64,000 bases of DNA. Source: Candidatus Bathyarchaeota archaeon (GTDB lineage: Archaea; Thermoproteota; Bathyarchaeia; 40CM-2-53-6). A program made the translations under genes and the position numbers. This document shows, piece after piece, positions 9,325 through 37,923 of this stretch (positions are counted from its first letter, which is position 1; each line of letters opens with the position of its first letter). The notes beneath the pieces are model-generated. The model saw nothing but the letters and a program-made list of their open reading frames with translations, had not been told where the DNA came from and did not search any database. The stretch covers positions 268,901 through 332,900 of the forward strand of contig CAWJRR010000002.1 of assembly GCA_963845275.1 (NCBI GenBank), in the 5' to 3' direction.

Positions 9325-10280
9325 ATTGTGCCTTCCTGGAGAGCTTTGATTCTTGCGTCTAACGTGGGTTGCTTGTCGAATACTCCAAACCATCGATGTC
9401 TGCCAGAGTGGAACAAGCACGCCATCCCAACTGATGTAGGCGGAGTGGCCACCTCATAGTGGGCTTCGCGTATCTTAGAAAGTGCTGACACTAGAGCGTT
9501 CGGTCCACCAACCAGCTTGGAGGCCGTGCTGTCCGCTAAGTGTTCACGAGATCTGTACACCGCAGGCTCTATCAAGTAACTAAGAGGACGTGAGAATAGG
9601 CCAACCTTCGCCATGGTGGCGAAGAATCGAAGAGTGAAATCTTTGTTCTTCAAATGTGATATCTCATGTGCAAGACACGCCTCAACCTCCGCGGGCCTCA
9701 ATGATTCCAGCAGCCCGACTGAGACTACAAGAACGAATCCCTGCTGTGATCGGGTTATGAACGCCCATGGGATCCCCGAATCTAAGAGGCTTACATGAGG
9801 CATCTGCACGCCCGCAGTCGCGGCCAGCTTCTTGACGATTCGTTGAACGTATGGTGGAGGGTCGAGAAACTGATATTGAGGGAAAAGTCGGGTCAACGGC
9901 ATACGAGATTTTCCAAATTCCACGTACGTTGCAACAGCAAACGCTGCTACAACGCCAGTTATTGCTAGACCTAGATTAACATCAAAGAAGATTGAGAAAA
10001 AATGACGGATGCCTTCAGAAACTGGGTCTGGGTGCATTAACTCCATATGCAATCCTATTACGATAAGTTGCAGGCTCTGATAGAACATTAGAGCTAAAAC
10101 GCAGAGAAGAGTTATTGATCTGCCTCGAAAGGATCGTTTGAAGGATACTGATAAAATTAGAGCCAATAGTGTAAGGATGATCAGAAGCGGCGAAAGAAAC
10201 CCAGCGAAGCCATGGGCAGTAACTGGCCCCAGAAACACCCAGGCTAGTAATATGAACAGCCTGGGGGAGTATTCGATCAT
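9321..10280 (-). CDS. Membrane M48-family zinc metalloprotease (BlaR1/HtpX-like sensor-protease)
   Basis: HExxH motif HEISHLKNKD follows four N-terminal TM segments. There is a 4-nt overlap with the upstream BlaI-like gene. Confidence 0.8.
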   Translation of the reverse strand: MIEYSPRLFILLAWVFLGPVTAHGFAGFLSPLLIILTLLALILSVSFKRSFRGRSITLLCVLALMFYQSLQLIVIGLHMELMHPDPVSEGIRHFFSIFFDVNLGLAITGVVAAFAVATYVEFGKSRMPLTRLFPQYQFLDPPPYVQRIVKKLAATAGVQMPHVSLLDSGIPWAFITRSQQGFVLVVSVGLLESLRPAEVEACLAHEISHLKNKDFTLRFFATMAKVGLFSRPLSYLIEPAVYRSREHLADSTASKLVGGPNALVSALSKIREAHYEVATPPTSVGMACLFHSGRHRWFGVFDKQPTLDARIKALQEGTI

Positions 10281-15199: not shown

Positions 15200-15892
15200 A
15201 TGCTTCTCAGGACGTTACAGATCGCAGTTCTAGGCGGTAACGAGGATGCTGTGCATGTGGGTTTGCGCAATTTTCCGGCGCATAAAGTGATCCTGATCGC
15301 GCCGCATGAATCGACGGTTCAAGCAGAATCGTTTGCGGCGAAGCTCACTAGCACGCTAAAGCTTCCAGTAGACGTTGTAGGATTGAAGGACTCGAGTATT
15401 TCGACGATGCTTGAGGGAATCTCACAAATAATGAGAGAAGAAACTGGGGCATTTGAGGACGTGATCATCAATGTTGGATCAGCAGACAAGCATTTGACAT
15501 GTGCCGGGGTGACGGCAGCCTTCGTACACGGAATAAGGGCATTCGACGTTATGGGAGACCAGCCCATTATTCTCCCGATAATGAATTTCAGTTATGCTCA
15601 GATCGTTACGGAGCCGAAGATGCAGATATTGCGTGCAATCTTAAGATCTGGAGGTGACGTTGAGAGCCTTGAAAAGTTGAGCGTCCTCTCAAACTTTGGG
15701 AAGCCCCTGTTGAGTTATCATATTAGAGGATCTGAGGAGGCGCGCGGGCTAGAAGCTCTTGGGTTGGTCGAGGTGGAACGTGGGAAAAGAGGTAGATTAA
15801 GAGTGAAGGTAACGGCGCTCGGTAGAATTCTTTTGTCTACGGAAATTAAGGAGGCTGCTTCGTCTCCTTCTGTGGGCCGTTCTTCTTCTTAG
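15200..15892 (+). CDS. Rossmann-like (CARF/Csa3-like) domain fused to a C-terminal wHTH; putative ligand-sensing regulator
   Basis: N-terminal alternating beta/alpha pattern (LQIAVLGG..., VILIAP..., VIINVGSADKHLTCAGVTAAF). C-terminal wHTH is ILRAILRSGGDVESLEKLS...GLEALGLVEVERGKRGRLRVKVTALG. Confidence 0.5.
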   Translation: MLLRTLQIAVLGGNEDAVHVGLRNFPAHKVILIAPHESTVQAESFAAKLTSTLKLPVDVVGLKDSSISTMLEGISQIMREETGAFEDVIINVGSADKHLTCAGVTAAFVHGIRAFDVMGDQPIILPIMNFSYAQIVTEPKMQILRAILRSGGDVESLEKLSVLSNFGKPLLSYHIRGSEEARGLEALGLVEVERGKRGRLRVKVTALGRILLSTEIKEAASSPSVGRSSS

Positions 15893-26407: not shown

Positions 26408-27279
26408 TTCGATGCTCCATTCTCAAATACTGCTTTGTGAAGTGCTTGATAGACTAGGGAACTCAGAACTTTCCTCCTATACTCTGCTGAGCCTCTGATA
26501 TCGGTGATAGGTGAGGCGTCTTGAGAGGCAAGTTTTGCGGCATCCTGTAATGATTTCTCAGTGAGGCACCTACCAATGAGAGCTTGCTCGCAGCTGTGGG
26601 CTCTCACGATAGTCGGAGCAACTGCACCCAAGGCGACTTTAACGTCACCGTACGAATCCTTGTGTTTCCCCCTGAGGATCACGGCCACGTCAACGATCGA
26701 GATCGCGTTAGCTTTTCGTAGACCTAGTTTGAGATAAGCACCTGCATCCTTCCTAGTGAGTCCATCAAACTGGATTTCTTCAATTAGTTCATCTGATTTT
26801 AAGGCAGTCTTGCGGTATTCGATGAAGAATCTCTCAATCGGAATTTCACGTCTATCAGACTGATTCCGTGTTACAATCGTTGCTCCAAGTGCGTAGAGGG
26901 GTGGTAAACAGTCTGCTGCTGGTGACGCGTTCCCGAGATTGCCGCCAATTGTGGCGCTGTTTTGCAGTTGAGTGGCCCCAATCTGTTTCGCTGCTTCAAG
27001 AAGAATCCAGGCCTGTCTCTTGATATGTCGTGACCTTATTATCTCGGTATAAGTGCTAAGGGCGCCGATGTGGATTCTACCGTACTTTTCTTTAATGAAT
27101 TTCAAATCTTTGACGGCAAGTATGTTTAGGAGTTTCTCTGTTTTGACTGCGCCGTCCCTTAGCTGGATTATAAGGTCTGATCCGCCTGCGATGATTCTGA
27201 TAGCGTTTTGATGCAGTTGTAGTAGCGTTAACGCTTCTTCTAATGTGTGAGGCGAGAGGACGTCAATTTCAGAACGCAT
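26404..27279 (-). CDS. FAD-binding medium subunit (CoxM/XdhB type, set 2)
   Basis: Motifs IAGGSDLIIQL and TIGGNLGN. ATG at 27279 (the track begins at a TTG at 27282). Confidence 0.85.
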   Translation of the reverse strand: MRSEIDVLSPHTLEEALTLLQLHQNAIRIIAGGSDLIIQLRDGAVKTEKLLNILAVKDLKFIKEKYGRIHIGALSTYTEIIRSRHIKRQAWILLEAAKQIGATQLQNSATIGGNLGNASPAADCLPPLYALGATIVTRNQSDRREIPIERFFIEYRKTALKSDELIEEIQFDGLTRKDAGAYLKLGLRKANAISIVDVAVILRGKHKDSYGDVKVALGAVAPTIVRAHSCEQALIGRCLTEKSLQDAAKLASQDASPITDIRGSAEYRRKVLSSLVYQALHKAVFENGASK

Positions 27280-27285
27280 CAAATA

Positions 27286-27761
27286 CTATGTTCTCCGCTT
27301 CTTGGCAGCGTCTTCGACAGCTGCGATTATCTTGGTGTAGCCTGTGCATCTACAGAGATTACCGGATAGTGCATTCTTGATGTCTGCTTTGGTTGGCTTC
27401 GGATTTTCCATGAGAGCGCGGACGCAGATACAATCATGCCAGGAATACAGTGGCCGCATTGTACTGCTCCATGATCAATGAATGCTTTCTGAACCGCATT
27501 CAGCTTTCCATCCTTTGCTAATCCTTCAGATGTTATGATTTCTGAATTTTCAGCCTGAGAAACGAGCACTAAACAAGAACAAACTGGCTGCCCGTTCATT
27601 ATCACGGTGCATGCCCCGCATTCTCCTTTAGCGCAGTCTTCTTTGGGGCCAGTGACCTGCAATTGATCACGAAGAACTTCGAGAAGTGTGTAAGCGGGCG
27701 GGCATCTTACTGTAATCGCTTCGCCGTTTAGCTTGAAACTTATCTTATGCTCCACGCGCAC
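27286..27761 (-). pseudogene. [2Fe-2S]-binding small subunit (set 2) with a single-base frame break. The C-terminal cluster motif is out of frame.
   Basis: The track ORF 27327..27761 has CAKGECGACTV and QCGHCIPGM, then reads ...SALSWKIRSQ... The adjacent frame encodes LMENPKPTKADIKNALSGNLCRCTGYTKIIAAVEDAAKKRRT-stop (TAG at 27286..27288). The break is at about 27412..27417. Confidence 0.7.
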
Positions 27762-27925
27762 TAGACCGCACTCCTGAATCTGGAATCTAGGATAGGATAG
27801 GCAAATATGTGTCTCTTAACCGTTGATCGAATTTGATCAATTCCTAACACATCATAAATTGCCTTCAGTTTAGAAGTTCCTCTCTTGAGAAAGGCTCTTT
27901 TCCATGATCACATTCTGGTTATGTT

Positions 27926-28003
27926 ATGTCGCGTGTGGCCCTTTACTTACAGGATAAGCCAACGGTTTTATCCTTTAGCTACACGGCGAGGCAGAACGAG
28001 TGA
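27926..28003 (+). other. Displaced 5' fragment of the LLM oxidoreductase gene (start codon plus 11 codons), fused to 14 element-derived codons
   Basis: ATG TCG CGT GTG GCC CTT TAC TTA CAG GAT AAG encodes [11 protein letters not shown], identical from RVALYLQDK to residues 9-17 of ORF 36057..37103. The fragment ORF ends at TGA 28001..28003, overlapping the integrase GTG (28000). Confidence 0.7.
27935..27959 (+). repeat. attL: left copy of the 25-bp perfect direct repeat GTGGCCCTTTACTTACAGGATAAGC
   Basis: Exact match to 36084..36108. The flanking bases differ on both sides. Confidence 0.9.
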
Positions 28004-29001
28004 ACGAGAAGCCTCGCATTAAGAAAACCTTTGACTGGGTTCAAAGGGAACCACTCATCAAGCCTTGGCATCGTAAGCTATCCTCAGGCTCTGAGAGAAC
28101 TGCAATTCATTACGCCTACAATCTGCAAAGACTGTTAGAGGAAAGAAAGCAGACACCAGAGCAGTTCCTTGAATACTGCAAATCAAAATACACTTCACCG
28201 AAAGCTACCGGCGAACTATGGGTTGAACTCAGGGACCAGGCTTACGAGTTCAAGCCTTCACAGGTGAAGATGATTGTCAAAGCGTTCCGCAGTTTCCTGA
28301 CGCATCACGGCGTATTCCTCCCAGCCGAAAGACTACCAACACCTAAACCAAACAACAAGAAAGAACTGCCTTATGATGAACTCAAAAAGATAGTAGCCCT
28401 GTGCCCTGAACCGTACAGAACAATCTTCACAATATTCACTTATGCACCGATGGGTGAGGTTTCATTCATTCAATGGAACAACAGCGATGACATGGCTCAG
28501 GACGTGCAGAGGCAGCTATCCAATAGGAAGGATTACGTGAAGGTTGTTCACCCACCAAGGAAGAATGCTCGTTTCCGCTTCTACTCGTTGATTCCCAAGA
28601 CAGTGATTCAGGATTACCTGGACCGTGGAGGAATCTTGCCTTTCAGGAATAGCAGAGGCTACCTAGTCAAAGACTACAATCTGCAGAAGGAGTGGAGAAG
28701 CATCAGGGAGAACCGAGCAGGATACAAGAAACACAAGGGCGTAGGTGTCCACGAAATTCGTGATGCATGGTTCACCTGGGCTGGTACACCTAGCGGTGGA
28801 AGACTGGATTGGGATTACAGGAAGTTTGCAATAGGCCACTCGCAATTCTCAGAACAGGAATACAACAAATTGTGGGAGCGTGAAGGAGAGATGGCGGACC
28901 AGCTAAGAGGAGCTTGGGCTGCAAGGGATTCAGACCCTGAGCTGGCGAAGAAGATTACTGAAATTGAGGAGTCCACGAAAGCATACTTGTATCTGGTCTG
29001 A
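28000..29001 (+). CDS. Tyrosine recombinase-like integrase
   Basis: The C-terminal half shows an HxxR box (GVHEIRDAWFTW), a GH (FAIGHS) and a candidate catalytic Tyr (SEQEYNKLW). There is an N-terminal SAM-like helical region. The first catalytic Arg was not confidently located. Confidence 0.6.
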   Translation: MNEKPRIKKTFDWVQREPLIKPWHRKLSSGSERTAIHYAYNLQRLLEERKQTPEQFLEYCKSKYTSPKATGELWVELRDQAYEFKPSQVKMIVKAFRSFLTHHGVFLPAERLPTPKPNNKKELPYDELKKIVALCPEPYRTIFTIFTYAPMGEVSFIQWNNSDDMAQDVQRQLSNRKDYVKVVHPPRKNARFRFYSLIPKTVIQDYLDRGGILPFRNSRGYLVKDYNLQKEWRSIRENRAGYKKHKGVGVHEIRDAWFTWAGTPSGGRLDWDYRKFAIGHSQFSEQEYNKLWEREGEMADQLRGAWAARDSDPELAKKITEIEESTKAYLYLV

Positions 29002-29294
29002 AACGGGTCAAAATAAGGCAATTAGCCTCTAATGGTAGTGAATTGAGGCGTTTACCCCCAGTCACCGCACCGTAAAGGGCATAGACGTATGGTGAGCTTG
29101 AAAAGCGTACTCACGAGACTAACCCCTATTGTGGCTAGCACTCGCCGGTAGGTCAACGTTGACACTGGCCTTATTGGAAACAGGGCTGATTGCATGACGT
29201 TTTAGGTCAATGCGCCAAGAATCAGGGCGTTTAAGGCCGAATATGCTCTTACTTGGGACGAGAGGTTGTGGACGTGCATAACGCTGCTGTGGTA

Positions 29295-29770
29295 CGCTAG
29301 GCTAGTTGGCCTCCTAGCGTGGTAGAGGCTGGGAGGAGGCCACTATACACTACAGAGGACAAGAGAGCACCTAGGTATGACACCTATCCTCTGCGTTACT
29401 TATGTACCTCCCACTCGGCGAAATGGCTTGGAGGCGTCTCCAGTCCCTACTTCCGAGTGGCCCCCGTCAGACCGTCATAGAGGAGGGGGCCAACTAGATG
29501 ATTCCAATACGTCCTATCAATGCTGTGAAGAGAGGGACCAACTGCAATTCATGTAACGGCCACACGAAGGTGGACCATTCACAGGGATTCATGGTAGGAC
29601 AACACAGCTTACGTTTAGTGGTCGGCGGCATACCCAGACAGAGGGCCGACCAACTAGCTCGATTTCATAATTCGCATACAAGGTATTTGATTTACTCGCA
29701 CCCAGCATTAAAGTCCGCTAAATCCACCTCTCCCACTTCTGCGGAGTTGAGAGGTCGGCCAACGATGACT
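29295..29770. repeat. Noncoding, hairpin-rich region with an iterated GGCCAAC/GACCAAC motif (iteron-like)
   Basis: GGCCAACTAG occurs at 29488..29497 (+) and 29302..29311 (-). GACCAACTG is at 29536..29544, GACCAACTAG at 29648..29657 and GGCCAACGAT at 29757..29766, with another GGCCAACGAT at 35537..35546. Hairpins: CGCTAGG/CCTAGCG (29295..29319) and TGGCCCCC/GGGGGCCA (29458..29493). Confidence 0.55.
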
Positions 29771-29837
29771 GAGCGTTCATTGCAATAGAATAGAAAAAAG
29801 GAGGGAGATTGGGAGTTGATGCCGTGTTTCGCTGATT

Positions 29838-30167
29838 TTACTTATTGCAAAAGTCGCCTTGGAAGTCAGAGACCTCGAAACTGTGCGGCGTAATGCCATC
29901 GCCACAGCCGCAAGCTGCGTCAGTACCTATCTTGCCTGAAAAACAGCCGTGGTGTGGTGGGTCGTGGCTTCCGCCATTTCCTCCGTCATGCACAAAGGGG
30001 CAGTTATTCGCAGTATAGTTCGGGTTGCTTGGTGACATTTGAGCGCAAGTGTTCGTGTTCCCGCCCGTACTTTGCGTAGGCTGCACTATGGGATTAGCGT
30101 AAGCGATACCGACAAGCGTTGAGGTTGCCAACATCAATCCCAAGAGGATTGAGAGAAGTGCTTTCAC
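29838..30167 (-). CDS. Small secreted Cys/Gly/His-rich protein (cassette 1)
   Basis: GTG start with GGAG 7 nt upstream. The leader MKALLSILLGLMLATSTLVGIAYANPIVQPTQS is paralogous to that of 30400..30624. The mature part has 7 Cys and a PPHHG motif. Confidence 0.65.
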   Translation of the reverse strand: MKALLSILLGLMLATSTLVGIAYANPIVQPTQSTGGNTNTCAQMSPSNPNYTANNCPFVHDGGNGGSHDPPHHGCFSGKIGTDAACGCGDGITPHSFEVSDFQGDFCNK

Positions 30168-30195
30168 CGAATATCTCCGCCGCCGAGTAATACAT

Positions 30196-30212
30196 ACGAC
30201 ATATATTTAGTT
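30196..30212 (-). promoter_or_regulatory. TATA-like promoter element of cassette 1 (minus-strand CTAAATATATG)
   Basis: It lies ~35 nt upstream of the GTG at 30167. The whole upstream block (TAAATATATGTCGTATGTATTACTC...GGAG) is conserved upstream of cassette 2. Confidence 0.4.
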
Positions 30213-30399
30213 TTCACCCACCATAATTCATTGTGAGTCGTCGAAAACACATATGCGTACTACCGCTATCGAGAGGCCCAGATTCTGAGATTCTAGCCTC
30301 TAATTGCGTCCTCGTTGGAGTCCACTTGTATTTTACTCACGAGTAGAACGAAGAGGAAGGGGGGTTGATGTCGTCTATTGTCAACTTTGATAGGCTTGC

Positions 30400-30624
30400 T
30401 CAGTCGTGGTGAGGGCCGTTTCTTGGAGGTTCACCAGGGCCACATGCGGTATAATAGTACGGCGGATAATAGTACGGCGGATATGGCGGATAAGGCGGAC
30501 AATAGTAGGGCGGATATGGCAGAGATTGCGCAGGTTGCATTGTGGGAGTAGCGTAAGCGATACCAACTAGCGTTGAGGTTACAAAAATCAATCCCAGTAG
30601 GATTGAGAAAAGTGCTGTCTTCAC
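30400..30624 (-). CDS. Small secreted Pro/Tyr-rich peptide (cassette 2)
   Basis: The homologous GTG start at 30624 gives (M)KTALFSILLGLIFVTSTLVGIAYATPTMQPAQS. The core is LPYPPYYCPPYPPYPPYYYPPYYYTACGPGEPPRNGPHHD. The track ORF extends to 30660. Confidence 0.6.
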   Translation of the reverse strand: MKTALFSILLGLIFVTSTLVGIAYATPTMQPAQSLPYPPYYCPPYPPYPPYYYPPYYYTACGPGEPPRNGPHHD

Positions 30625-30653
30625 TAAATATGCCTCCTCCATGACTAGTACAT

Positions 30654-30670
30654 ACGGCATATATTAGGCA
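30654..30670 (-). promoter_or_regulatory. TATA-like promoter element of cassette 2 (minus-strand CCTAATATATG)
   Basis: Same spacing (~35 nt) to the GTG at 30624 as in cassette 1. CTAATATATGCCGTATGTACTAGTC aligns with the cassette-1 upstream block. Confidence 0.4.
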
Positions 30671-30910
30671 TGTCGCATGTTACATCAATGTCACACGCAT
30701 GATACATATCTATACCTACAGGCGTGAATAGGTTCTGCCAATCATCCAGTCAACCCTACTTTCTCTTTCTGAAAAGTCTGACCCGTCCCTATTGCGGAGC
30801 AAAGGTTAGCGCTGAGAAATCAACCTCGTACTCGGAGAGTCGCATTCCCAAAAGAGGAACCTCACGTTTCTAATCGATTTGCTTGACCATTTCGTGTTGC
30901 CGTTACGTGA

Positions 30911-31099
30911 TTGTCGACTGCCGAGCTTTTGCATTCCATGAACTGTCCAAAATGTCATGAACCACAGCTTTCACTCCTAGGCCGTAGCTTACGATTCATG
31001 AATGAAGGAACGGAAGTGGTCTTGGATTACCTATGTCCAAGATGCCAGACACGCTGGCAACGCTGGGGAGAAACTGGACTCAAGATTGAAGAAGTCTAG
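30911..31099 (+). CDS. Small zinc-ribbon protein
   Basis: Two CxxC pairs: CPKCHEPQ ... CPRCQTRW. 62 aa. An alternative ATG start lies at 30938. Confidence 0.5.
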   Translation: MSTAELLHSMNCPKCHEPQLSLLGRSLRFMNEGTEVVLDYLCPRCQTRWQRWGETGLKIEEV

Positions 31100-31194
31100 C
31101 CACTTTCTTTCTTGAAAACATCTCCGCTAATCGTCTTGGCCCGAAGCGTAGCGCAGGGTCATAAAACTAGAACATAATCAGAACGTTACAACAA

Positions 31195-31404
31195 TCAATT
31201 CAATGATTGCCATGAGTCCAATTTAGATTGTCCAGTAGAACCCTTTCCTTTGCGCAAACTCAATAGTACTATTACGGAAACAGCGATGACGGTAACGAGG
31301 GCTATAGCCACTTCATGATATGTGCTACCCGTGGAGATGGGAGCTATTTGCTGAGTTATGTAGCCTGTCTGCGTTAAGGAAGATGTCGTCGTATAGGTGG
31401 GCAT
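31195..31404 (-). CDS. Small single-pass membrane protein (hypothetical)
   Basis: Central TM VAIALVTVIAVSVIVLLSL followed by a basic stretch RKGKG. Confidence 0.4.
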   Translation of the reverse strand: MPTYTTTSSLTQTGYITQQIAPISTGSTYHEVAIALVTVIAVSVIVLLSLRKGKGSTGQSKLDSWQSLN

Positions 31405-31479
31405 GGATTGTTCGTATTCTCTTGGGCGCTTCAGTTATCGTTGACATGTAGGGAACAGAGCAGCCTGAAGTGAGATAGT

Positions 31480-32199
31480 TTGAAAGAGCCTCCGCCAGCT
31501 TGTAGGACGTGCGGTCGACCCATGCAATTACTAGACGAGGGGGACCAGAAGTGGTACTGCTACAGGGACGATGAGATATTCTATTCTAGGGAGGCCAAGT
31601 GGGGAACGCCATTAGGGGAAGCTGAAGCTCCCGACTCTTGGACTTGTCTATGCGGACGCAAGAGGAGCGCCAGTTATTCCTTTGCAAAGCGTATTGAATG
31701 CATAGACTGCGAAGAACCGCATTACATCGGAGTACGAATCGACTCTACAGTTGTGCAGGAAGTCAAGAGGCGATTTCGAGCCAATATGAGAGGCGCTTAC
31801 GGCTACCCAGATAAAAAAATCGATAAGATTATTGCATCAGCTGAGGCTGCGTCAAGTCCGACGAGGGTAGTCGCATATCTTGAAAAAACGGACGCTGCTA
31901 TCTTTGCCTCCAAGGCGCCTGGATGGTTTGGGATTGGACTAGGGTCATTCGCTGCGATGGCATTGAATGCCATAGAGGTAGCCCGACTTAAGCCTCCAGT
32001 TCCCCTCTTTGGCACACTTACCCAAGAACTAGAGCACCTGACGTCGAAGCGTTTGGGAGAAACGACTGCAAGACTAGGTACAGGAGTAATAGTACAGGAG
32101 GTTGAACCAAAAGCTTCTACGAAGTTCTGCCGTGAATGTGGAGAGAGAATTCCAAGAGATAGTGTCTTCTGCGAAGAGTGTGGGGCCAAAATAGCCTAA
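31480..32199 (+). CDS. Double zinc-ribbon protein, paralog A (N-terminal CxxC...YCY module plus C-terminal zinc ribbon)
   Basis: N-terminus is ACRTCGRPMQLLDEGDQKWYCYRDDEIFYSREAKW and C-terminus is KFCRECGERIPRDSVFCEECGAKIA. Both ends are paralogous to 33110..33691. Confidence 0.65.
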   Translation: MKEPPPACRTCGRPMQLLDEGDQKWYCYRDDEIFYSREAKWGTPLGEAEAPDSWTCLCGRKRSASYSFAKRIECIDCEEPHYIGVRIDSTVVQEVKRRFRANMRGAYGYPDKKIDKIIASAEAASSPTRVVAYLEKTDAAIFASKAPGWFGIGLGSFAAMALNAIEVARLKPPVPLFGTLTQELEHLTSKRLGETTARLGTGVIVQEVEPKASTKFCRECGERIPRDSVFCEECGAKIA

Positions 32200-32375
32200 C
32201 TGGACGGAGTCCAATACACAATATCAAAAATGCTAAACCGTTCTTGATTAGACAAAACCGAGGACTTTGCTAGCTTTCTGAGTGTCGTAGTGCGTTGTAA
32301 TATAATTTGTATATTGACAAGTGTTAAACAGAGCTCCTACAAAGCTCAAGGCATGTAATGCCTTCGTGATTTGAA

Positions 32376-32648
32376 TTGACCCAACGGTCGAAGGTCCAAT
32401 ATCGGACGCTCCATCGAACGGCAGTTATTTCTGGGCTGCTTTTCGTTCTCATATTATTCGGTATGGGCATTATCTCAGGTGCTATCCAAGGGTCCACTAC
32501 ACTGCTTCTGCCATATGACCAAATTGATGCGTACAATGCTCTTGCTCAAAAAACTGACCAGCTGTTAGCACCTTACGAAAGTCTGAAGAACACCGTAGTT
32601 ATACTAGATATTGCGGCACTCGCAGTAGTAATTGCCTCAGACTCTTAA
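32376..32648 (+). CDS. Small membrane protein (hypothetical); possibly the N-terminal part of 32632..33123
   Basis: Two hydrophobic segments. It overlaps the next ORF by 17 nt in a different frame. TTG start. Confidence 0.35.
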   Translation: MTQRSKVQYRTLHRTAVISGLLFVLILFGMGIISGAIQGSTTLLLPYDQIDAYNALAQKTDQLLAPYESLKNTVVILDIAALAVVIASDS

Positions 32649-33123
32649 TTCTTATGCGAAACGAACTTTCCACAAAGTGACAGTATTTGTGGCACCGTTT
32701 GTTGTGACAGCCGACATACTCTCTGAAGGTTGGTACCGTTCCCTTACCCAACAGGCTTTGACTCAGCTTTCGTCAGTGATGGATACAGGCACATTGAATA
32801 CAGCATTACAAGTTCAGCAGAAGTTCAATGCAGCTTATGGATTCTGGGGTTCTCCTGAATACGACACATTAGGAGTTATTTTGTCATGGATTGGAGTGGG
32901 ATTTCTAATTGCTGCAGTTCTTACGATGAAGATTGTAACCGTGAGCGAAACCACGGTAAAGCAAGAAGACGCCATTCCAATTATCGGTCCTGTGAAGATT
33001 ACGAACGACCAAGCTCCAGTCGCCCCACCCTTGAAATATTGTCGTTATTGTGGAGCCAAGATACCTAGACAGAGTAAGTTTTGTGAGGAATGCGGAGCCA
33101 CTCTAAGCCTTGAAACTAAGTGA
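32632..33123 (+). CDS. Membrane protein with a C-terminal zinc ribbon, paralog C
   Basis: TM segment LGVILSWIGVGFLIAAVLTM. The C-terminus KYCRYCGAKIPRQSKFCEECGATL matches the ribbons of 31480 and 33110. Confidence 0.6.
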   Translation: MPQTLNSYAKRTFHKVTVFVAPFVVTADILSEGWYRSLTQQALTQLSSVMDTGTLNTALQVQQKFNAAYGFWGSPEYDTLGVILSWIGVGFLIAAVLTMKIVTVSETTVKQEDAIPIIGPVKITNDQAPVAPPLKYCRYCGAKIPRQSKFCEECGATLSLETK

Positions 33124-33691
33124 TGTGAAACGGAAACCAGTCTGCAAGTTATGCGGCAAACAAATGACGCTGCTGGACGAAGAGAGAGGGTACTGCTACA
33201 AGGATGACCTAATTTATTACGTGAAGGAACTCCGATGGAGTGACGATGGTCCTGCTACCTCTGCTACCAAAACTGAAGCAGGTCCTCCAGCCCCACCTGT
33301 CGGAACAATCGACGTATGGGTTCCTATCGTATTGCTGCTGGCGATGTTGCTGCTTTCATACCGGATTCCTTTTGCGGGAGTCGGTCTATTCATTGTAGCG
33401 ACACTGTACGTTCATTACAGCTCCAAGAAATTCAAGATTGGCGGTGGCCGTGCGTTCGTCACGCTTCTTTTTGCCATAGTAGGCTTGCCACTCTTTGCCT
33501 ACGACCTGCATAAGCTCAAGCAGCATCAGAGGTCGCCCGTTTCACAACCACTCGCTAGTGCGGGACCCATGCCTACGGTCGCAAAACCAGCACAGGTCAC
33601 GGTTCCTGAAGCAAAGTTCTGCCGAGAATGCGGTGCTAAAATACCAAGAGACAGCATGTTCTGCGAGGAATGCGGAACCAAACTAAGCTAA
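33110..33691 (+). CDS. Double zinc-ribbon membrane protein, paralog B
   Basis: N-terminus VCKLCGKQMTLLDEERGYCYKDDLIYYVKELRW, three TM segments, and C-terminus KFCRECGAKIPRDSMFCEECGTKLS. Confidence 0.65.
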   Translation: MKLSDVKRKPVCKLCGKQMTLLDEERGYCYKDDLIYYVKELRWSDDGPATSATKTEAGPPAPPVGTIDVWVPIVLLLAMLLLSYRIPFAGVGLFIVATLYVHYSSKKFKIGGGRAFVTLLFAIVGLPLFAYDLHKLKQHQRSPVSQPLASAGPMPTVAKPAQVTVPEAKFCRECGAKIPRDSMFCEECGTKLS

Positions 33692-34784
33692 TTGGGGCGA
33701 CGTGAGTTCATGCGGCTCTTGAGGTCGGCTTGTTACGTTGTTCTTCTCACTCTTCTTGCTATTTCAGTGACCGAGAACGTTCGAGCACAGTCCGCATCGA
33801 CATCAATCTCGAACCTAAATGCTCCTTCACGTGCCCTGTTGGGTAGAGAGATTCCCGTCACACTGACCGTCACTTACTCTGAAGGGTCCAATAGATATTT
33901 TTTTGACATAGCCATTATTGACAGGGAGACAAACGACTATGCTCAGGGCACTGCGCACGCTTCACCTACAGACTGCGTATCCACGGCAGGAGTCGATTTG
34001 AGCAGCTTTAATCCTGCACTTTGCCCTTTTCCCTCATCGTTTCAAGCTTCAGGCTCAGTAGATGTAACCTTCAACCTGAAATTCCAGACTGTGAAAACTT
34101 ACCATCTTGCGGCAACGGCAGCCTATTTTGACTCCAGCGGCAAGCTTGTACAATCATCACGGACTTACCAACTCTTTTCAATCGATGTTACCGATAAAGT
34201 GAATCTGCAAGTTCTCGTGCCAAATGCAGTATCCATAATGGTTAATGGAGTTCCCCAAGGTCTTGGCCCCGTTTCCATCGATGTTGATCCAGGAACGTAC
34301 ACAATCGTAACTCCACAAACGGTTGATGTCAAAACAGGTGAACGACTAAGATTCGAGCACTGGTCAGACGGTTCTACTAGTACAAGTAAAATCGTAAATC
34401 TACAAGACGACACATCCTACTCAGTGGCATATGTAACGCAGTACAAGCTAACTTTGCTTAGCTCGCAAGGTAACTCTACTGGGCGCTTGGTATGATGAGG
34501 GTACTACGGCAGTGTTCAGCGTTCCCCCAGGTGTTCCAATGACCGGAATCCTCGGAATCCTTGGAGGCAAGTATGATTTCCAAGGATGGTATGAGAACAT
34601 GACGCTCGTATCTTCTTCAAATAACAGTTCACTCAAAATGAACGACCGGCATTCGCTGACTGCTAGTTGGACGCCGAACTACATTGTTCCAATAATCATT
34701 CTTGGCGTAGTGGTTATTGCCGTAGTTGGCCTAACTTTCTATTCACGTAGACGGAAAGGGCAGACCGGTACCAAACAGCCCTGA
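33692..34784 (+). pseudogene. Secreted, C-terminally membrane-anchored repeat protein, interrupted by a 1-nt frame break (33692..34495 plus 34512..34784)
   Basis: Signal peptide MRLLRSACYVVLLTLLAISVTENVRA. Frame 2 ends ...SSQGNSTGRLV-stop, while frame 0 continues GAWYDEGTTAVFSVPPG...GWYENMT... to a TM anchor (IIILGVVVIAVVGLTFY-RRRK). The break is at or next to the GGG run 34481..34483. Confidence 0.6.
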
Positions 34785-34805
34785 CGATGCAAGGTAGAAA
34801 TCAGT

Positions 34806-35027
34806 TTGGCTCAAGGTAGTAATCTCGTCGAGTTCCTTCAGGAGCTTTTGCCGCCAATAGTTGGGTCTTTCTTTGGCTTCTTGGTCGAGAATCGAATAGA
34901 AAAACGAAGACGTGAGAGATTGAGGGCAGAGTATACTAGAGGACTGAAATCGGAAATCACACAATGCATCGGCCTCCTCAAGAATCGTCTATTCCAACTT
35001 TTGCCAGATGACCTCTGGAAGATTTAG
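34806..35027 (+). CDS. Hypothetical protein (73 aa)
   Basis: An N-terminal hydrophobic segment followed by a charged helix. No family recognised. Confidence 0.35.
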   Translation: MAQGSNLVEFLQELLPPIVGSFFGFLVENRIEKRRRERLRAEYTRGLKSEITQCIGLLKNRLFQLLPDDLWKI

Positions 35028-35041
35028 TAGGTTCTGGAGAC

Positions 35042-35293
35042 TTGTCCATATTTCCCTTTGTTGAGAGGGAGGACCTGCGTCAAGCATACTTCGCAATCAG
35101 CAAATGCAATTATGAGTTTACCAGAGCTAGGGACCTCGGAGAGAAATTCCGTGCAGAAGCGGACACTGAGCGAAAGAAAATGCAAATCCAATCGGCGTGG
35201 GAAGCAACAACAGAAAATGCAAATCAGATGACAGACAGCACACTTTCGTTCTTGGAGGAACTTGCTAGTCGCCCTTGGTGGAGAGAGGGTTGA
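35042..35293 (+). CDS. Hypothetical helical protein (83 aa)
   Basis: Charged, helix-like composition. No family recognised. Confidence 0.35.
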   Translation: MSIFPFVEREDLRQAYFAISKCNYEFTRARDLGEKFRAEADTERKKMQIQSAWEATTENANQMTDSTLSFLEELASRPWWREG

Positions 35294-35708
35294 TTAATTC
35301 GACCTTGTCCAACAAGTGTGGTATCAATCCTAATTCATCTTGAATGAACGTCGGCTCGTTCGACTACTATGCCTTGTATGAGGGTTAGTGGGAGTCTGTA
35401 GTTGCAGACATTAAGAGAGGCGTGTAGGGTTTATGCTATCTCATATTCTGATTCTTTTTTTGTTTGGATTTCTGTCTAGTTGGGGGTGTTGTTGCTGTTG
35501 TTGCCGTTGTGGCCTCATAGCTGGGTGAAATGTGGAGGCCAACGATTGTGAATTGCGTGTATAGGGTTGTTGTGTGTATATCGGGGTTGTAGGGTAGGGA
35601 TTCTCCCGTCTATTTTCTATTGGCCGCATCTGCCGAGAGAGCCACAATGGATGGTTGCTCCGGTTGTGGTGGGGTGGATGTTGACGTCCACGTTGGGAGT
35701 GACGTCCA

Positions 35709-36008
35709 ATGATGTCAGCCCAGCAAATCATACACCTGGACAATCAGCCAGTGGCCCAGCCAACAACACAGCCGATAGCTGGGCGAAGTAGAATACTAGA
35801 AGTGGTACCACCCAGAAGACAACACGGATTAAACAAAACCTTCCGCCATATTGGCAAAAGCAAACTCTGGGTTATCACAGCCGCAAGAGAATCACCATGC
35901 TCCGTGTGCGAGTCTGGAATCAAACAAGGTCAAACAATCACATTGTACACGCTAGGTTGGGGTCACGTATCCCACCTACCCCAAAACGCTGAGCCGAAAC
36001 TCACATAG
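35709..36008 (+). CDS. Hypothetical protein (99 aa) at the right end of the element
   Basis: The ATG is immediately preceded by two TGACGTCCA direct repeats (35682..35690 and 35700..35708). It contains CSVCESG. The overlapping minus ORF 35441..35743 is Q-rich and low-complexity. Confidence 0.3.
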   Translation: MMSAQQIIHLDNQPVAQPTTQPIAGRSRILEVVPPRRQHGLNKTFRHIGKSKLWVITAARESPCSVCESGIKQGQTITLYTLGWGHVSHLPQNAEPKLT

Positions 36009-36056
36009 GCTTGCGTAGCCTCTTAGGCATACATCTCAGCGTGAATCAAGAGAGGG

Positions 36057-37103
36057 TTGTGTAAAGTGGTAAACAGGCAAAGAGTGGCCCTTTACTTACA
36101 GGATAAGCATCAGGTTCGCGAAGAGCTGGAGTTTGTTCAATACGCTGAAAAGAAAGGGTTTGAGGCAATCTGGCACGCTGAATCACGATTGGCTAGAGAT
36201 GCTATCACACCCCTCGCCGCAATGGCCGTGGTCACTGAAAGGATCAAACTAGGAACTGGAGTTATCAACAACTGGACGAGAAATGTTGGACTCTGCGCTG
36301 CTACCTTTCTTACATTAGATGAACTCTCCGGCGGCCGGACTCTACTTGGCGTGGGAGCGTGGTGGGATCCACTTGCATGGAAGGTTGGAATTGAGCGAAA
36401 GAAACCGATCAAAGCCATGCGCGAGTATTGCACTGTCCTTCAGCGTCTCTTCAGGATGGAGAACGTAACTTTCGATGGTGAGTTCGTAAAAGTGCATGAC
36501 ATTCGACTCGATGTCGTGTATGGTGATCCAAATTCTCCACGGAAGATTCCAATTTACATTGGTGCGACTGGATGGGATATGATCGAGCTTACCGGCGAGA
36601 TCGCAGACGGGCTGCTACTGAACTACCTCGTATCGCCAGAATATAACAAGACAGCTCTAGATCACCTTAAAGACGGAGCTAAGAAAAGAAATCGCAATTG
36701 GGAAAAGATAGACCGTCCACAACTCATCGTGTGTTCGCTCGACGAAGATGCTGACAGGGCGTTAGACGACGCACGGCCGCTAGTGGCGCAATATCTTGGT
36801 CAGCAACCTCACATCGCGAAAGCTAGCGGAGTTAAAGAGAATCTGATTGAAGAGGTTAAGTTGGCGCTTGGCGGTTGGCCGGCGAAGCCGGGTGGGTTAG
36901 AGAAGGCCCAACTGCTCATAGATGACAAGTTAGTTAGACTCATAACTGCTAGTGGCACGGCGGATGATTGTCTGAAGAAAGTTGAGGAGTACGAGAATAC
37001 TGGATGCACGTGTCCTATTCTATATCCACTTGGAGACGATGTCCGTGCGATGATTGATGCATTTCAAGTTGAACCTACACGCCCCGGTCCATTGGTTGCT
37101 TAA
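36057..37103 (+). CDS. LLM-class (luciferase-like) flavin/F420-dependent oxidoreductase, with its 5' end replaced by element-derived sequence
   Basis: [40 protein letters not shown] is the typical LLM N-terminal beta1-alpha1 pattern. The only alternative starts available now are TTG 36057, GTG 36066 and GTG 36084. Confidence 0.8.
36084..36108 (+). repeat. attR: right copy of the 25-bp perfect direct repeat GTGGCCCTTTACTTACAGGATAAGC
   Basis: Exact match to 27935..27959. It lies inside codons 10-18 of ORF 36057..37103. Confidence 0.9.
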
Positions 37104-37134
37104 TCTAACTGAATCAACGAGGGTTAGACAGGTC

Positions 37135-37923
37135 TTAGTTGTTTTCCCAAAGTGATCTGAAATACTCTCTTGACCTAACCGCATCCTTATACGACGTGAA
37201 TACTTCAAAAGTAATCGTCCTGTTGTAACCAATTGCCTTGAGCCATCTAACTACTTTCTTGAAGTCTATGAAGCCGGAGCCCAGCGGCAGGTGTTCGTCG
37301 AGGTCTCCATGGTTATCATGGATGTGAATATGATTTAGTCTTGGGGAAAATCGTTTCAGGTATGCCTCGATTCTGTTCATACCGCCCTCAATGAATGCGT
37401 GCGCAATATCCAGATGACAATTTAGTTGTGGTACACTCTCCATGACGTGCGAATAATTCCCTATGCCTCCTGTTCCGTAGTCTCCGACAGGAACGTTTTC
37501 TAACATCAACACAATTCGCTTCGACCTTCCAAACGTGCAAAGTTGACTCATTGCACTCGAAAAATTGTCGAGGAAATCGTCTCGTGACTCCTTGGTATCC
37601 CCGACTCGGCCGAGTTTTCCGTAGAAGTGAAAATTAAGCAGCTCAAGCCTGAGCTGTGATGCAGTCTGGATCATGGCTTTTGCTTCTTCAATCCAACCTC
37701 TCCGCGCTTTTACGTGGGCTGAACCAAACTGCACCCAATATGCTGTATGGCCGATGGCAAACATGTCATTTGCCGACAATAATTCCAAGATTCGTTTTCG
37801 TTGGCGCAACAAGATCGACGGTGTAGCTGATGGTTCTTCAATTCCTATTTCCGCATAATCAAAACCTAACTTCTTGAATCGGATGATCTCCTCGGGAACT
37901 GATTGAATTGGATCCGTTAACAT
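37135..37923 (-). CDS. Sugar phosphate isomerase/epimerase (xylose isomerase-like TIM barrel)
   Basis: HIHIHDNHGDLDEHLPLGSGFIDF and LENV motifs. The likely start is the ATG at 37923 (MLTDPIQSVPEEIIRFKKLGFDYAEI). The track ORF extends to 38055. Confidence 0.8.
   Translation of the reverse strand: MLTDPIQSVPEEIIRFKKLGFDYAEIGIEEPSATPSILLRQRKRILELLSANDMFAIGHTAYWVQFGSAHVKARRGWIEEAKAMIQTASQLRLELLNFHFYGKLGRVGDTKESRDDFLDNFSSAMSQLCTFGRSKRIVLMLENVPVGDYGTGGIGNYSHVMESVPQLNCHLDIAHAFIEGGMNRIEAYLKRFSPRLNHIHIHDNHGDLDEHLPLGSGFIDFKKVVRWLKAIGYNRTITFEVFTSYKDAVRSREYFRSLWENN

Follow-up and report, generated by a model that had tools for sequence, protein, structure and literature searches.

A site-specific integrative element, very probably one of a small Bathyarchaeia family, at the 5' end of an LLM oxidoreductase gene

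The DNA analyzed here (the window, a whole stretch of 64 kb) belongs to contig CAWJRR010000002.1 of a Candidatus Bathyarchaeota archaeon (assembly GCA_963845275.1), and contains an interval that very probably is a site-specific integrative element of a small Bathyarchaeia family, 8149 bp in size when one copy of its terminal repeat is counted. The interval is bounded by the 25-bp direct repeat GTGGCCCTTTACTTACAGGATAAGC, present exactly twice in the window and both times on the + strand, with the left copy (the core of the attachment site attL) at 27935-27959, the right copy (the attR core) at 36084-36108 and a start-to-start spacing of 8149 bp. The outer and inner bases that flank the two copies are unlike on both sides, no further copy with three or fewer mismatches is found in the window, and 100 dinucleotide shuffles gave 0 matches. 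The original prediction had described an integrated element of about 8.1 kb, bounded by this repeat with dissimilar flanks and inserted in a protein gene rather than a tRNA. Copies, positions and flanks were re-read in the window and stand as described, the integrated element is borne out by the repeat (chance expectation 0) together with empty sites in relatives, and the nature of the target holds as well, with no tRNA gene anywhere in the window, by which a tRNA target is ruled out. A non-coding RNA at the locus is likewise ruled out by the absence of Rfam matches, both in 27000-37500 at E<=1 and in the whole window at gathering thresholds. Guanine-plus-cytosine (GC) content does not set the element (0.44-0.52) apart from its flanks (0.45-0.51), so that no compositional anomaly is present.

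Along the + strand, the left junction retains a box, GAAAGGCTCTTTTCC (27889-27903), situated 23-37 nt before the native ATG of the target gene, followed by that stranded start with codons 2-3 (ATG TCG CGT, 27926-27934), which match the related locus L002, and by the left repeat copy. The left arm of the element (27960-27999) contains the motif TTTTATCCTTTAGC at 27966-27979 and an in-frame TAG at 27976-27978. The integrase gene (28000-29001, 333 amino acids, GTG start) begins 41 bp past attL, and is followed by a cargo of mostly small open reading frames (ORFs) described below. The right arm (36009-36083) includes the conserved AAAGTGGTAAAC at 36063-36074 and a GTG at 36066, preceded by a TATA-like GGCATACATC at a distance of about 35-40 nt, as well as codons for VNRQR. 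The right repeat copy then makes codons 4-12 of a chimeric gene with an element-derived N-terminus (36066-37103, +), which encodes an LLM-class, F420-type (mer-like) oxidoreductase (Bac_luciferase, E=1.9e-65); the best NCBIfam models for this protein are F420-dependent LLM families, all below their equivalog cut-offs.

The insertion can be read most directly from relatives that lack it. The LLM protein, with its N-terminus reconstructed, was searched against species-representative genomes, which provided 54 loci (related loci recovered for comparison are labeled L001, L002 and so on); the 23 closest, at 70-96% identity, carry a Bathyarchaeia-type locus, a few of them being filed under other names. 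When joined, the outer flanks of the window read ATG TCG CGT GTG GCC CTT TAC TTA CAG GAT AAG CAT CAG, the in-frame, ATG-initiated N-terminus that had been proposed, and both frame and N-terminus are matched in related genomes. Upstream DNA resembling the left flank of the window is present in L002 (92% protein identity) and L003 (89%), whose LLM gene starts ATG TCG/ACA CGT GTR GCN CTN TAT, as the junction predicted; L002 has an identical ATGTCGCGT, directly continuous with the LLM gene body. Ten relatives have a 2Fe-2S subunit gene some 150-260 bp upstream of the LLM start with no gene between them, and share the start pattern ATG-xxx-CGN-GTN-GCN; for most relatives this distance is about 165 bp. 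After removal of 27960-36108, the window aligns across the junction as a single match to L002 (81% over 1304 nt) and L003 (80% over 2030 nt), and, also unbroken, to L004 and L053 (71%). Empty sites made of left flank, one repeat copy and right flank, of the kind that the original prediction expected, are thus found colinear in four relatives.

Several of these comparison loci deserve separate mention. The L003, L004 and L014 contigs are filed under metagenome-assembled genomes of Methylomirabilota, Acidoferrum and Acidiferrales, and carry the xanthine-dehydrogenase-type/LLM locus, with LLM proteins 80-89% identical to that of the window and, in L003, a 2Fe-2S subunit at 84%; they are probably mis-binned archaeal DNA, and the argument is unaffected. 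In L011 (2180-10000) and L016 (3050-10000), 7-8 kb separate the 2Fe-2S and LLM genes, the LLM start (ATG and GTG, respectively) appears native, and no integrase homolog is found in the interval; L011 has two 457-amino-acid paralogs with 71% identity. The interval between both genes may be a general hotspot, or L011 and L016 may merely have a different gene order. L008 and L019 were considered as empty and occupied alleles of one population, and rejected since they are only 92% identical.

Occupation of the same codons is recurrent. Relatives of the integrase were taken with their flanks from genomes, metagenomes and assemblies, and homologs situated 40-70 bp inside an LLM junction were found in L001, L007/L058/L059 (one element), L055, L060/L061, L066 and L068; each such junction consists of the native LLM upstream box, the ATG and the first codons, followed by element DNA with TTTTATNCNTTTARC. 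At least six elements at the LLM 5' codons are distinct by junction sequence, and these comparisons support the targeting of LLM codons 4-12 as a trait conserved in the lineage of this integrase rather than a single occurrence. Four elements were recovered with both their ends, namely those of the window (8.1 kb), L001 (5.5 kb, with a 23-bp repeat and an integrase reduced to 70 amino acids), L059 (9.7 kb) and L066 (7.9 kb). The element ends of the window and L001 are 85-89% identical and their interiors unrelated, a pattern that could result either from mosaic relatives that inserted separately or from one insertion whose interior was later replaced. A sister group of integrases (L056, L064, L065, L067) has another target, the 3' end of an NfeD gene, with a Band_7 gene lying downstream; in L065, the 17-nt repeat CTACTCTTAAGAGTRAA occurs at 9332-9348 and 15613-15629, 6281 bp apart. 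These NfeD-type elements (L064 9600-10010; L065; L067 1-150; L056) additionally have a Cys-rich ORF of 106-120 amino acids between att and the integrase gene.

The att core had been placed in codons 4-12 of the host gene, a location that stands and is conserved across the integrase lineage; the 25 bp, however, exceed the region that would be exchanged, which is nearer 8 bp. The two repeat copies of L059 have only CTTCAAGA in common, and those of L066 only TACCTTCAAGA; because the copies are imperfect in these two elements, the exchange region can be narrowed to the equivalent of TTACAGGA, at 27947-27954 in the left copy and 36096-36103 in the right copy of the window. Strand exchange would thus involve the approximately 8 bp of TTACAGGA, and the 25 bp would correspond to the stretch of identity between attP and attB, not to the exchange region itself. 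The predicted junctions are TTATGTTATGTCGCGTGTGGCCCTTTACTTACAGGATAAGCATCAGGTTCGCG for attB and GTAAACAGGCAAAGAGTGGCCCTTTACTTACAGGATAAGCCAACGGTTTTATCC for attP. The left-arm motif TTTTATNCNTTTARC lies at an equal offset in L001, L059, L055, L061, L066 and L068, as well as in the NfeD-type L064, L065 and L067, and is a putative integrase-binding site. Given the in-frame TAG in the same arm, the integrase ORF does not extend across att. Inverted repeats were also observed in the arms. In the reconstructed attP of L059, the right-arm GTGGTAAAC is mirrored in the left arm by CTTTACCAC, an almost perfect inverted counterpart, both lying about 21 nt away from the exchange region; this counterpart is degenerate in the window (27972-27982 vs. 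36066-36074), L001 and L066. The window has a 7-bp inverted repeat, AGGATAA/TTATCCT, spanning the right edge of the core. Both the L059 pair and the 7-bp repeat are possible candidates for integrase binding.

The ORF at 28000-29001 had been called tyrosine-recombinase-like, with a hidden Markov model (HMM) search as the way to check it. The direct search produced no Pfam match at E<=0.1 and no PHROG or NCBIfam family, so the claim does not stand on a direct curated match, but it is upheld by fold and by transitive profile evidence. A large protein collection contains just 13 close relatives; the profile of these 13 sequences retrieved only coiled coils from the PDB (ATP synthase b and others), matches that were discarded as spurious and driven by the variable C-terminal tail, which in many family members is a coiled coil. 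The AF2 model calculated from the alignment (predicted local distance difference test, pLDDT, 78.4) consists of an N-terminal helical core-binding domain and a C-terminal catalytic domain. When compared with the PDB by Foldseek, the first 15 ranks are occupied exclusively by tyrosine recombinases (XerA, lambda Int, IntI4, Brujita Int and XerH) with probabilities of 0.90-1.00, a best E of 4.8e-4 and a template modeling score of 0.55 vs. the lambda Int catalytic core; in a viral fold search (BFVD), ranks 1-35 are almost all integrases. An 8-member profile searched against 1.84 billion representatives yielded 228 proteins at E<=1e-3 with matches near full length, and among 83 sampled from these, PF00589 was present in 32 (best 1.8e-7) and PF16795 in five. 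A wider, 65-sequence profile (A7) matched XerA (4a8e, 1.9e-11 and 1.9e-9), lambda Int (1.6e-5), XerD (2.5e-4), IntI4 (6e-4) and Tn1549 Int (<1e-3) in the PDB. Fold model and profiles together support assignment of the ORF to a divergent tyrosine-recombinase clade, whose membership of the superfamily is established through remote evidence only.

The A7/XerA alignment places H251-E-I-R254 on HxxR, G279-H280 on GH and Y288 on the catalytic tyrosine. Since the box-I GLRVSE of XerA is aligned to PMGEVS of the integrase, its first catalytic arginine (Arg I) corresponds to G152, a column that among the 65 relatives is G in 56, D in eight, S in one and R never. H251, R254, H280 and Y288 are kept in 63-65 of the 65, and a β-hairpin Arg-Lys pair is nearly invariant (R187 in 64, K188 in 63). 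Candidate active-site residues are R187, K188, H251, R254, H280 and Y288, with G152 at the canonical Arg I position, and R187 might replace the missing arginine. The known archaeal variants R...KxxR...Y and R...YxxR...Y both keep the first arginine (PMC8371274). A split integrase of the SSV type was also considered and ruled out by the stop between att and ORF and by the lack of any C-terminal integrase remnant downstream of 29001; homologs can be aligned to the ORF over its full length, from one end to the other.

The original prediction also proposed that integration separates the LLM gene from its own promoter and start codon. This is correct for the left junction, where the native ATG and upstream box are stranded at attL, but it is half of the picture, as the gene gains a conserved start provided by the element. 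The upstream box, with consensus RAAAGRCTMTTSTTY, lies 25-38 nt before the ATG in the empty sites L002, L003, L004, L009 and L053, is found too in the left junctions of other occupied sites, and is a putative promoter. At the right end of the four completely recovered elements (window, L001, L059, L066), AAAGTGGTARAC is invariant, their integrases being only 56% identical; it is followed in frame by two variable codons, AGA, and then the element-encoded [VI]-[AG]-L-Y-L-Q-D. Codon choice in the element is unlike that of the host, as illustrated by AGA ATT GCG TTA TAT in the L059 element vs. CGG GTA GCT CTT TAC in its host. All four right ends continue in frame into the LLM gene, and the GTG at 36066 is the sole start conserved in all of them; the alternative TTG at 36057 is not. 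The re-headed N-terminus is three residues longer than the native one. Three of the four elements have a TATA-like box 35-40 nt before the GTG; this box may drive LLM transcription.

The LLM gene itself is under strong purifying selection between two occupied genomes, as judged from the ratio of nonsynonymous to synonymous substitution rates (dN/dS): between the window and L001 it is 0.057 at dS 0.32, and pairs including empty-site genomes give 0.039-0.049, an argument weakened because the window and L001 may share one insertion or hold separate ones. Considering the conserved in-frame GTG, the N-terminal codons provided by the element and the purifying selection, the gene has most likely been re-headed, not silenced. 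In two further loci, L013 (8540-10000) and L019 (420-10030), the LLM ORF is intact and its 5' end resembles that of the element (GTG...AGAGT[GC]GC), and neither integrase nor left junction was found in them; these loci may be fixed remnants, the gene head derived from the element having outlived it. L019 retains a homolog of window ORF 35042-35293. A sigma-70 scan, which is not applicable to archaea, returned 16 promoter-like signals vs. 10.9 (standard deviation 3.0) in shuffled sequence and eight terminator-like signals vs. 7.3; with counts so near to shuffled sequence, these signals were dismissed.

Broadly, the events at the locus were very probably as follows. The integrase would have joined attP, carried on a circular element, with attB, formed by LLM codons 4-12, by exchange within the approximately 8 bp of TTACAGGA. 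Upstream of the crossover, attP mimics the 5' end of the gene, with a GTG of its own, three to four extra codons, and synonymous versions of codons 3-10. After integration, the native box and ATG are left at attL, and the gene body is fused in frame to the element start at attR, so that the host gene stays an intact ORF, probably transcribed from the right end of the element, with its start codon and probably its promoter replaced.

The remainder of the interval had been described as small secreted, membrane and zinc-ribbon ORFs, a description that remains valid, with three ORFs carrying a zinc ribbon and several with one or two hydrophobic segments. The integrase gene is followed by an ORF-poor stretch of about 830 bp (29002-29837), with only ORFs of fewer than 100 amino acids in mixed frames, no Rfam match, a GC of about 0.51, slightly above its neighbors, and a 14-nt inverted repeat (29302-29315/29484-29497). 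On the - strand, two paralogous small secreted proteins with an N-terminal hydrophobic segment are encoded (29838-30660): one of 109 amino acids (29838-30167) and one of 86, rich in Pro and Tyr (30400-30660). Both genes have in common a signal-peptide coding repeat (D2; 94 nt, 85% identity, 30072-30165/30526-30619), tandem repeats (D4) of 15- and 33-nt units at 30443-30523 encode a PPYY-rich stretch, and a homolog is present in the L001 element. The following ORFs are all on the + strand. A 62-amino-acid zinc-ribbon protein (30911-31099), with weak Zn_ribbon_TFIIS and DUF7569 matches, also has a homolog in the L001 element. Next, a cluster at 31480-33691 encodes three paralogous proteins with a C-terminal zinc ribbon (31480-32199, 32632-33123 and 33110-33691; repeats D1 and D3), all with Zn_Ribbon_1 above the Pfam cut-off (Zn_Ribbon_1/DZR); 32632-33123 and 33110-33691 have transmembrane segments, an ORF with two such segments lies at 32376-32648, and the zinc-ribbon domain layout is also found in the L059 element. 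The AF2 single-sequence model of 31480-32199 (pLDDT 53) was too poor for a fold search. A single surface-protein gene, with signal peptide, ectodomain and C-terminal transmembrane anchor, is split by a frameshift into 33692-34495 and 34512-34784 (break near 34478-34490); both halves match one intact 483-amino-acid protein of L059 (12345-13796), and the frameshift could be real decay or an assembly indel. The last ORFs, 34806-35027, 35042-35293 and 35709-36008 (34806-36008), match no family; in L001, a homolog of 35709-36008 with 48% identity occupies the equivalent position, and the homolog of 35042-35293 in L019 is 54% identical.

Gene content beyond the integrase is largely unshared between elements: besides the integrase, the window and L059 have weak zinc-ribbon and surface-protein similarity only, and the window and L001 a few small ORFs, so a common cargo is ruled out beyond such weak or few similarities. 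The window element carries the secreted Pro/Tyr-rich paralogs, the zinc-ribbon membrane proteins and the frameshifted surface protein, and L059 encodes secreted, transmembrane and zinc-ribbon proteins like these. The cargo of L055 (9451-13937) comprises NurA and HerA as a pair, together with a truncated thymidylate-synthase-like gene, and is closer to defense or nucleotide-metabolism cargo than to the membrane-protein cargo of the window. A MazE-like gene is present in L066, and a SnoaL-like protein together with an M6 peptidase with CARDB in L068. The L065 element encodes a 426-amino-acid protein with a Walker-A-like GSGKS motif and no family match. No ORF of the window element has a Pfam or PHROG match to capsid, packaging or virion hallmarks, none of which is recorded in the related elements either, and no relaxase, VirB4/coupling ATPase or Rep is recognizable in it by Pfam or PHROG. 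As no replication, capsid or conjugation gene can be recognized, "cryptic integrated element" is the best label.

The interpretation as a site-specific integrative element is directly supported by the repeats, the empty sites, the recurrent occupation of the same codons, the fold and profile relationship of the recombinase, and the conserved in-frame start; promoter activity of the right arm, a present ability to excise and the mode of spread are what we infer beyond them. Several points weigh against it. The similar ends of the window and L001 elements would be compatible with one inherited insertion as well as with separate acquisitions. No curated model matches the integrase directly, and the canonical first arginine is absent from it (G in 56 of 65, R never), its catalytic competence being assumed. 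The TATA-like box is present in only three of four elements, and in L066 it lies at another distance. No excised or free form was found: the IMG/VR scan with the integrase profile returned no relatives, and the recovered metagenome contigs included no excised circle, attP junction, terminal overlap or free copy, all the short contigs being integrated junctions. Lastly, one cargo gene is frameshifted and no replication function is recognizable, and because of these two features the window copy could be immobile.

These last points lead to the alternative that best survives, namely that the element, integrated long ago and since deprived of its functions for excision or spread, is a fixed, immobile remnant whose right end now serves the LLM gene as a domesticated promoter and start, which we regard as possible but distinctly the less expected outcome. 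In addition to the frameshift and to the lack of recognizable replication, packaging and transfer genes (Pfam, PHROG), a remnant would fit a base composition like that of the flanks, the L001 element with the same junctions and an integrase of only 70 amino acids, the retention of nothing but an element-like 5' end in L013 and L019, and the lack of a free form in IMG/VR. The window integrase, however, is full length, keeps every invariant column of the 8-sequence alignment (A4), and retains the six positions nearly invariant in the 65 wider relatives; the repeat is perfect over 25 bp though its left copy is without coding constraint. Moreover, the family must have been mobile recently, given that elements with different cargo are found at this site in distinct lineages. 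The cargo indel itself may be an assembly error, because a second frameshift sits in the flanking host 2Fe-2S gene. This XdhC/CoxS-like gene (27286-27761, - strand) has a single-base deletion at about 27414 relative to L001, which yields two overlapping ORFs (27327-27761 and 27286-27459), and is either a pseudogene or the product of an assembly indel.

It is unlikely that the element acts as a regulatory switch (active lysogeny), in which integration would silence the LLM gene and excision restore it, like SpyCI in mutL, skin or SPbeta. The native box and ATG are indeed physically apart from the gene, and silencing by 5'-end integration has been documented for SpyCI, as cited in PMC4701971. 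However, a conserved in-frame GTG and synonymous codons 3-10 in all four right ends would be purposeless if the gene were off, purifying selection on LLM is equally strong in occupied genomes, and in L013, whose LLM ORF is intact and has a 5' end of the element type, excision is impossible because no integrase is present. That the repeat is a chance or duplication artefact, the 8 kb ordinary strain-specific chromosome and the ORF no recombinase is hardly credible, and is already contradicted: the ORF matches no curated HMM and its fold-search E is modest (best 4.8e-4 vs. the PDB), but the repeat has a chance expectation of 0, the window without the element is colinear with the empty sites, members of this ORF family are carried by at least six distinct elements that border these very codons, and the XerA profile match (1.9e-11) aligns HxxR...H...Y.

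The integrative-element interpretation can be set beside systems already described. In a thaumarchaeal survey, protein genes were the target of 14 of 68 elements, all at the 3'-distal end and none at the 5' end, the att repeats had a median of 17 bp, one element (NitEve-E2) supplies a new stop codon to its target ORF, and "cryptic integrated element" was the category for most of the integrated elements (Krupovic et al., 2019; PMC6563490). Like these cryptic and pNOB8-type elements, the window element has an intact integrase gene beside one att site, short repeats, and, as in the cryptic ones, unknown cargo without viral or plasmid hallmarks and an ORF reconstituted with element-derived sequence. 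Unlike them, it occupies a 5' end, and therefore must supply a start codon and transcription signals, not a stop. A review on archaeal tyrosine recombinases gives protein-gene targets, the end not being stated (Badel et al., 2021; PMC8371274). Arg I is kept in the SSV1 and pNOB8 integrase types, whereas the window clade is without the first arginine of R...HxxR...Y and is undetected by Pfam. SSV-type recombinases are similarly archaeal and of small elements, and PF16795 appears in five of the 83 distant relatives; yet in the "suicidal" SSV type the int ORF includes attP and is split on integration, while in the window the TAG at 27976-27978 parts att from a whole int gene. With XerA, lambda Int and Tn1549 Int, the window integrase shares the two-domain fold and, by profile, HxxR, H and Y; it differs in its 12-16% identity, in the change of Arg I to Gly, in the near-invariant hairpin Arg-Lys and in the frequent coiled-coil tail of its clade.

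The closest parallels for the 5' location are bacterial. Seven of 73 tyrosine integrases of streptococcal integrative and conjugative elements (ICEs) target the 5' ends of ftsK, rbgA or ebfC, and in some of these ICEs element DNA takes the place of the promoter and the rest of the region upstream (Ambroset et al., 2016; PMC4701971). The window element is like them in having a tyrosine integrase at the 5' end of a conserved gene, in preserving an N-terminus and, as in some ICEs, in replacing the upstream region. The streptococcal elements, in contrast, are bacterial, conjugative, of 18-50 kb or more and with PF00589 integrases, and conjugation genes are missing from the window element; besides, their N-terminus is reported unchanged, whereas that of the window is replaced and three residues longer. 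According to its citation in the same paper, insertion of SpyCI at the 5' end silences mutL (PMC4701971); there, as in phage switches, a 5' insertion parts the gene from its promoter, as is the case here, but those genes are described as off until excision, while the conserved in-frame start argues that the LLM gene is kept on. Thus, since archaeal and streptococcal precedents exist, restoration of the target gene by the element is an already known principle. What appears new, among the open-access full texts searched, is an archaeal 5'-end target with a substituted start codon and N-terminus; also new are the element family as such and the integrase clade, which has an altered catalytic signature and escapes curated models. 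A broader proposal, which we advance only tentatively, would be that an undescribed Bathyarchaeia recombinase clade acts without Arg I, perhaps by means of the hairpin Arg-Lys, and moves a portable "gene head" (promoter, GTG and synonymous codons) that takes over transcription and translation initiation of the oxidoreductase gene and can outlast the element, as in L013 and L019.

For the Bathyarchaeia, mobile elements are almost unknown besides a few viruses; the head-tailed, filamentous and spindle-shaped viruses described for this class include nothing like the window element (PMC10848311). From this locus, a family of elements can be delineated for which attB is well supported, two classes of target are recognized and several empty sites occur in nature. 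Because standard HMM annotation misses the integrase clade entirely, such elements are invisible to routine island and provirus finders. The clade is a test case for how an integrase tolerates the loss of a residue regarded as essential, and at this locus it is clearly seen that an element can rewrite the beginning of a host gene and yet leave the gene preserved.

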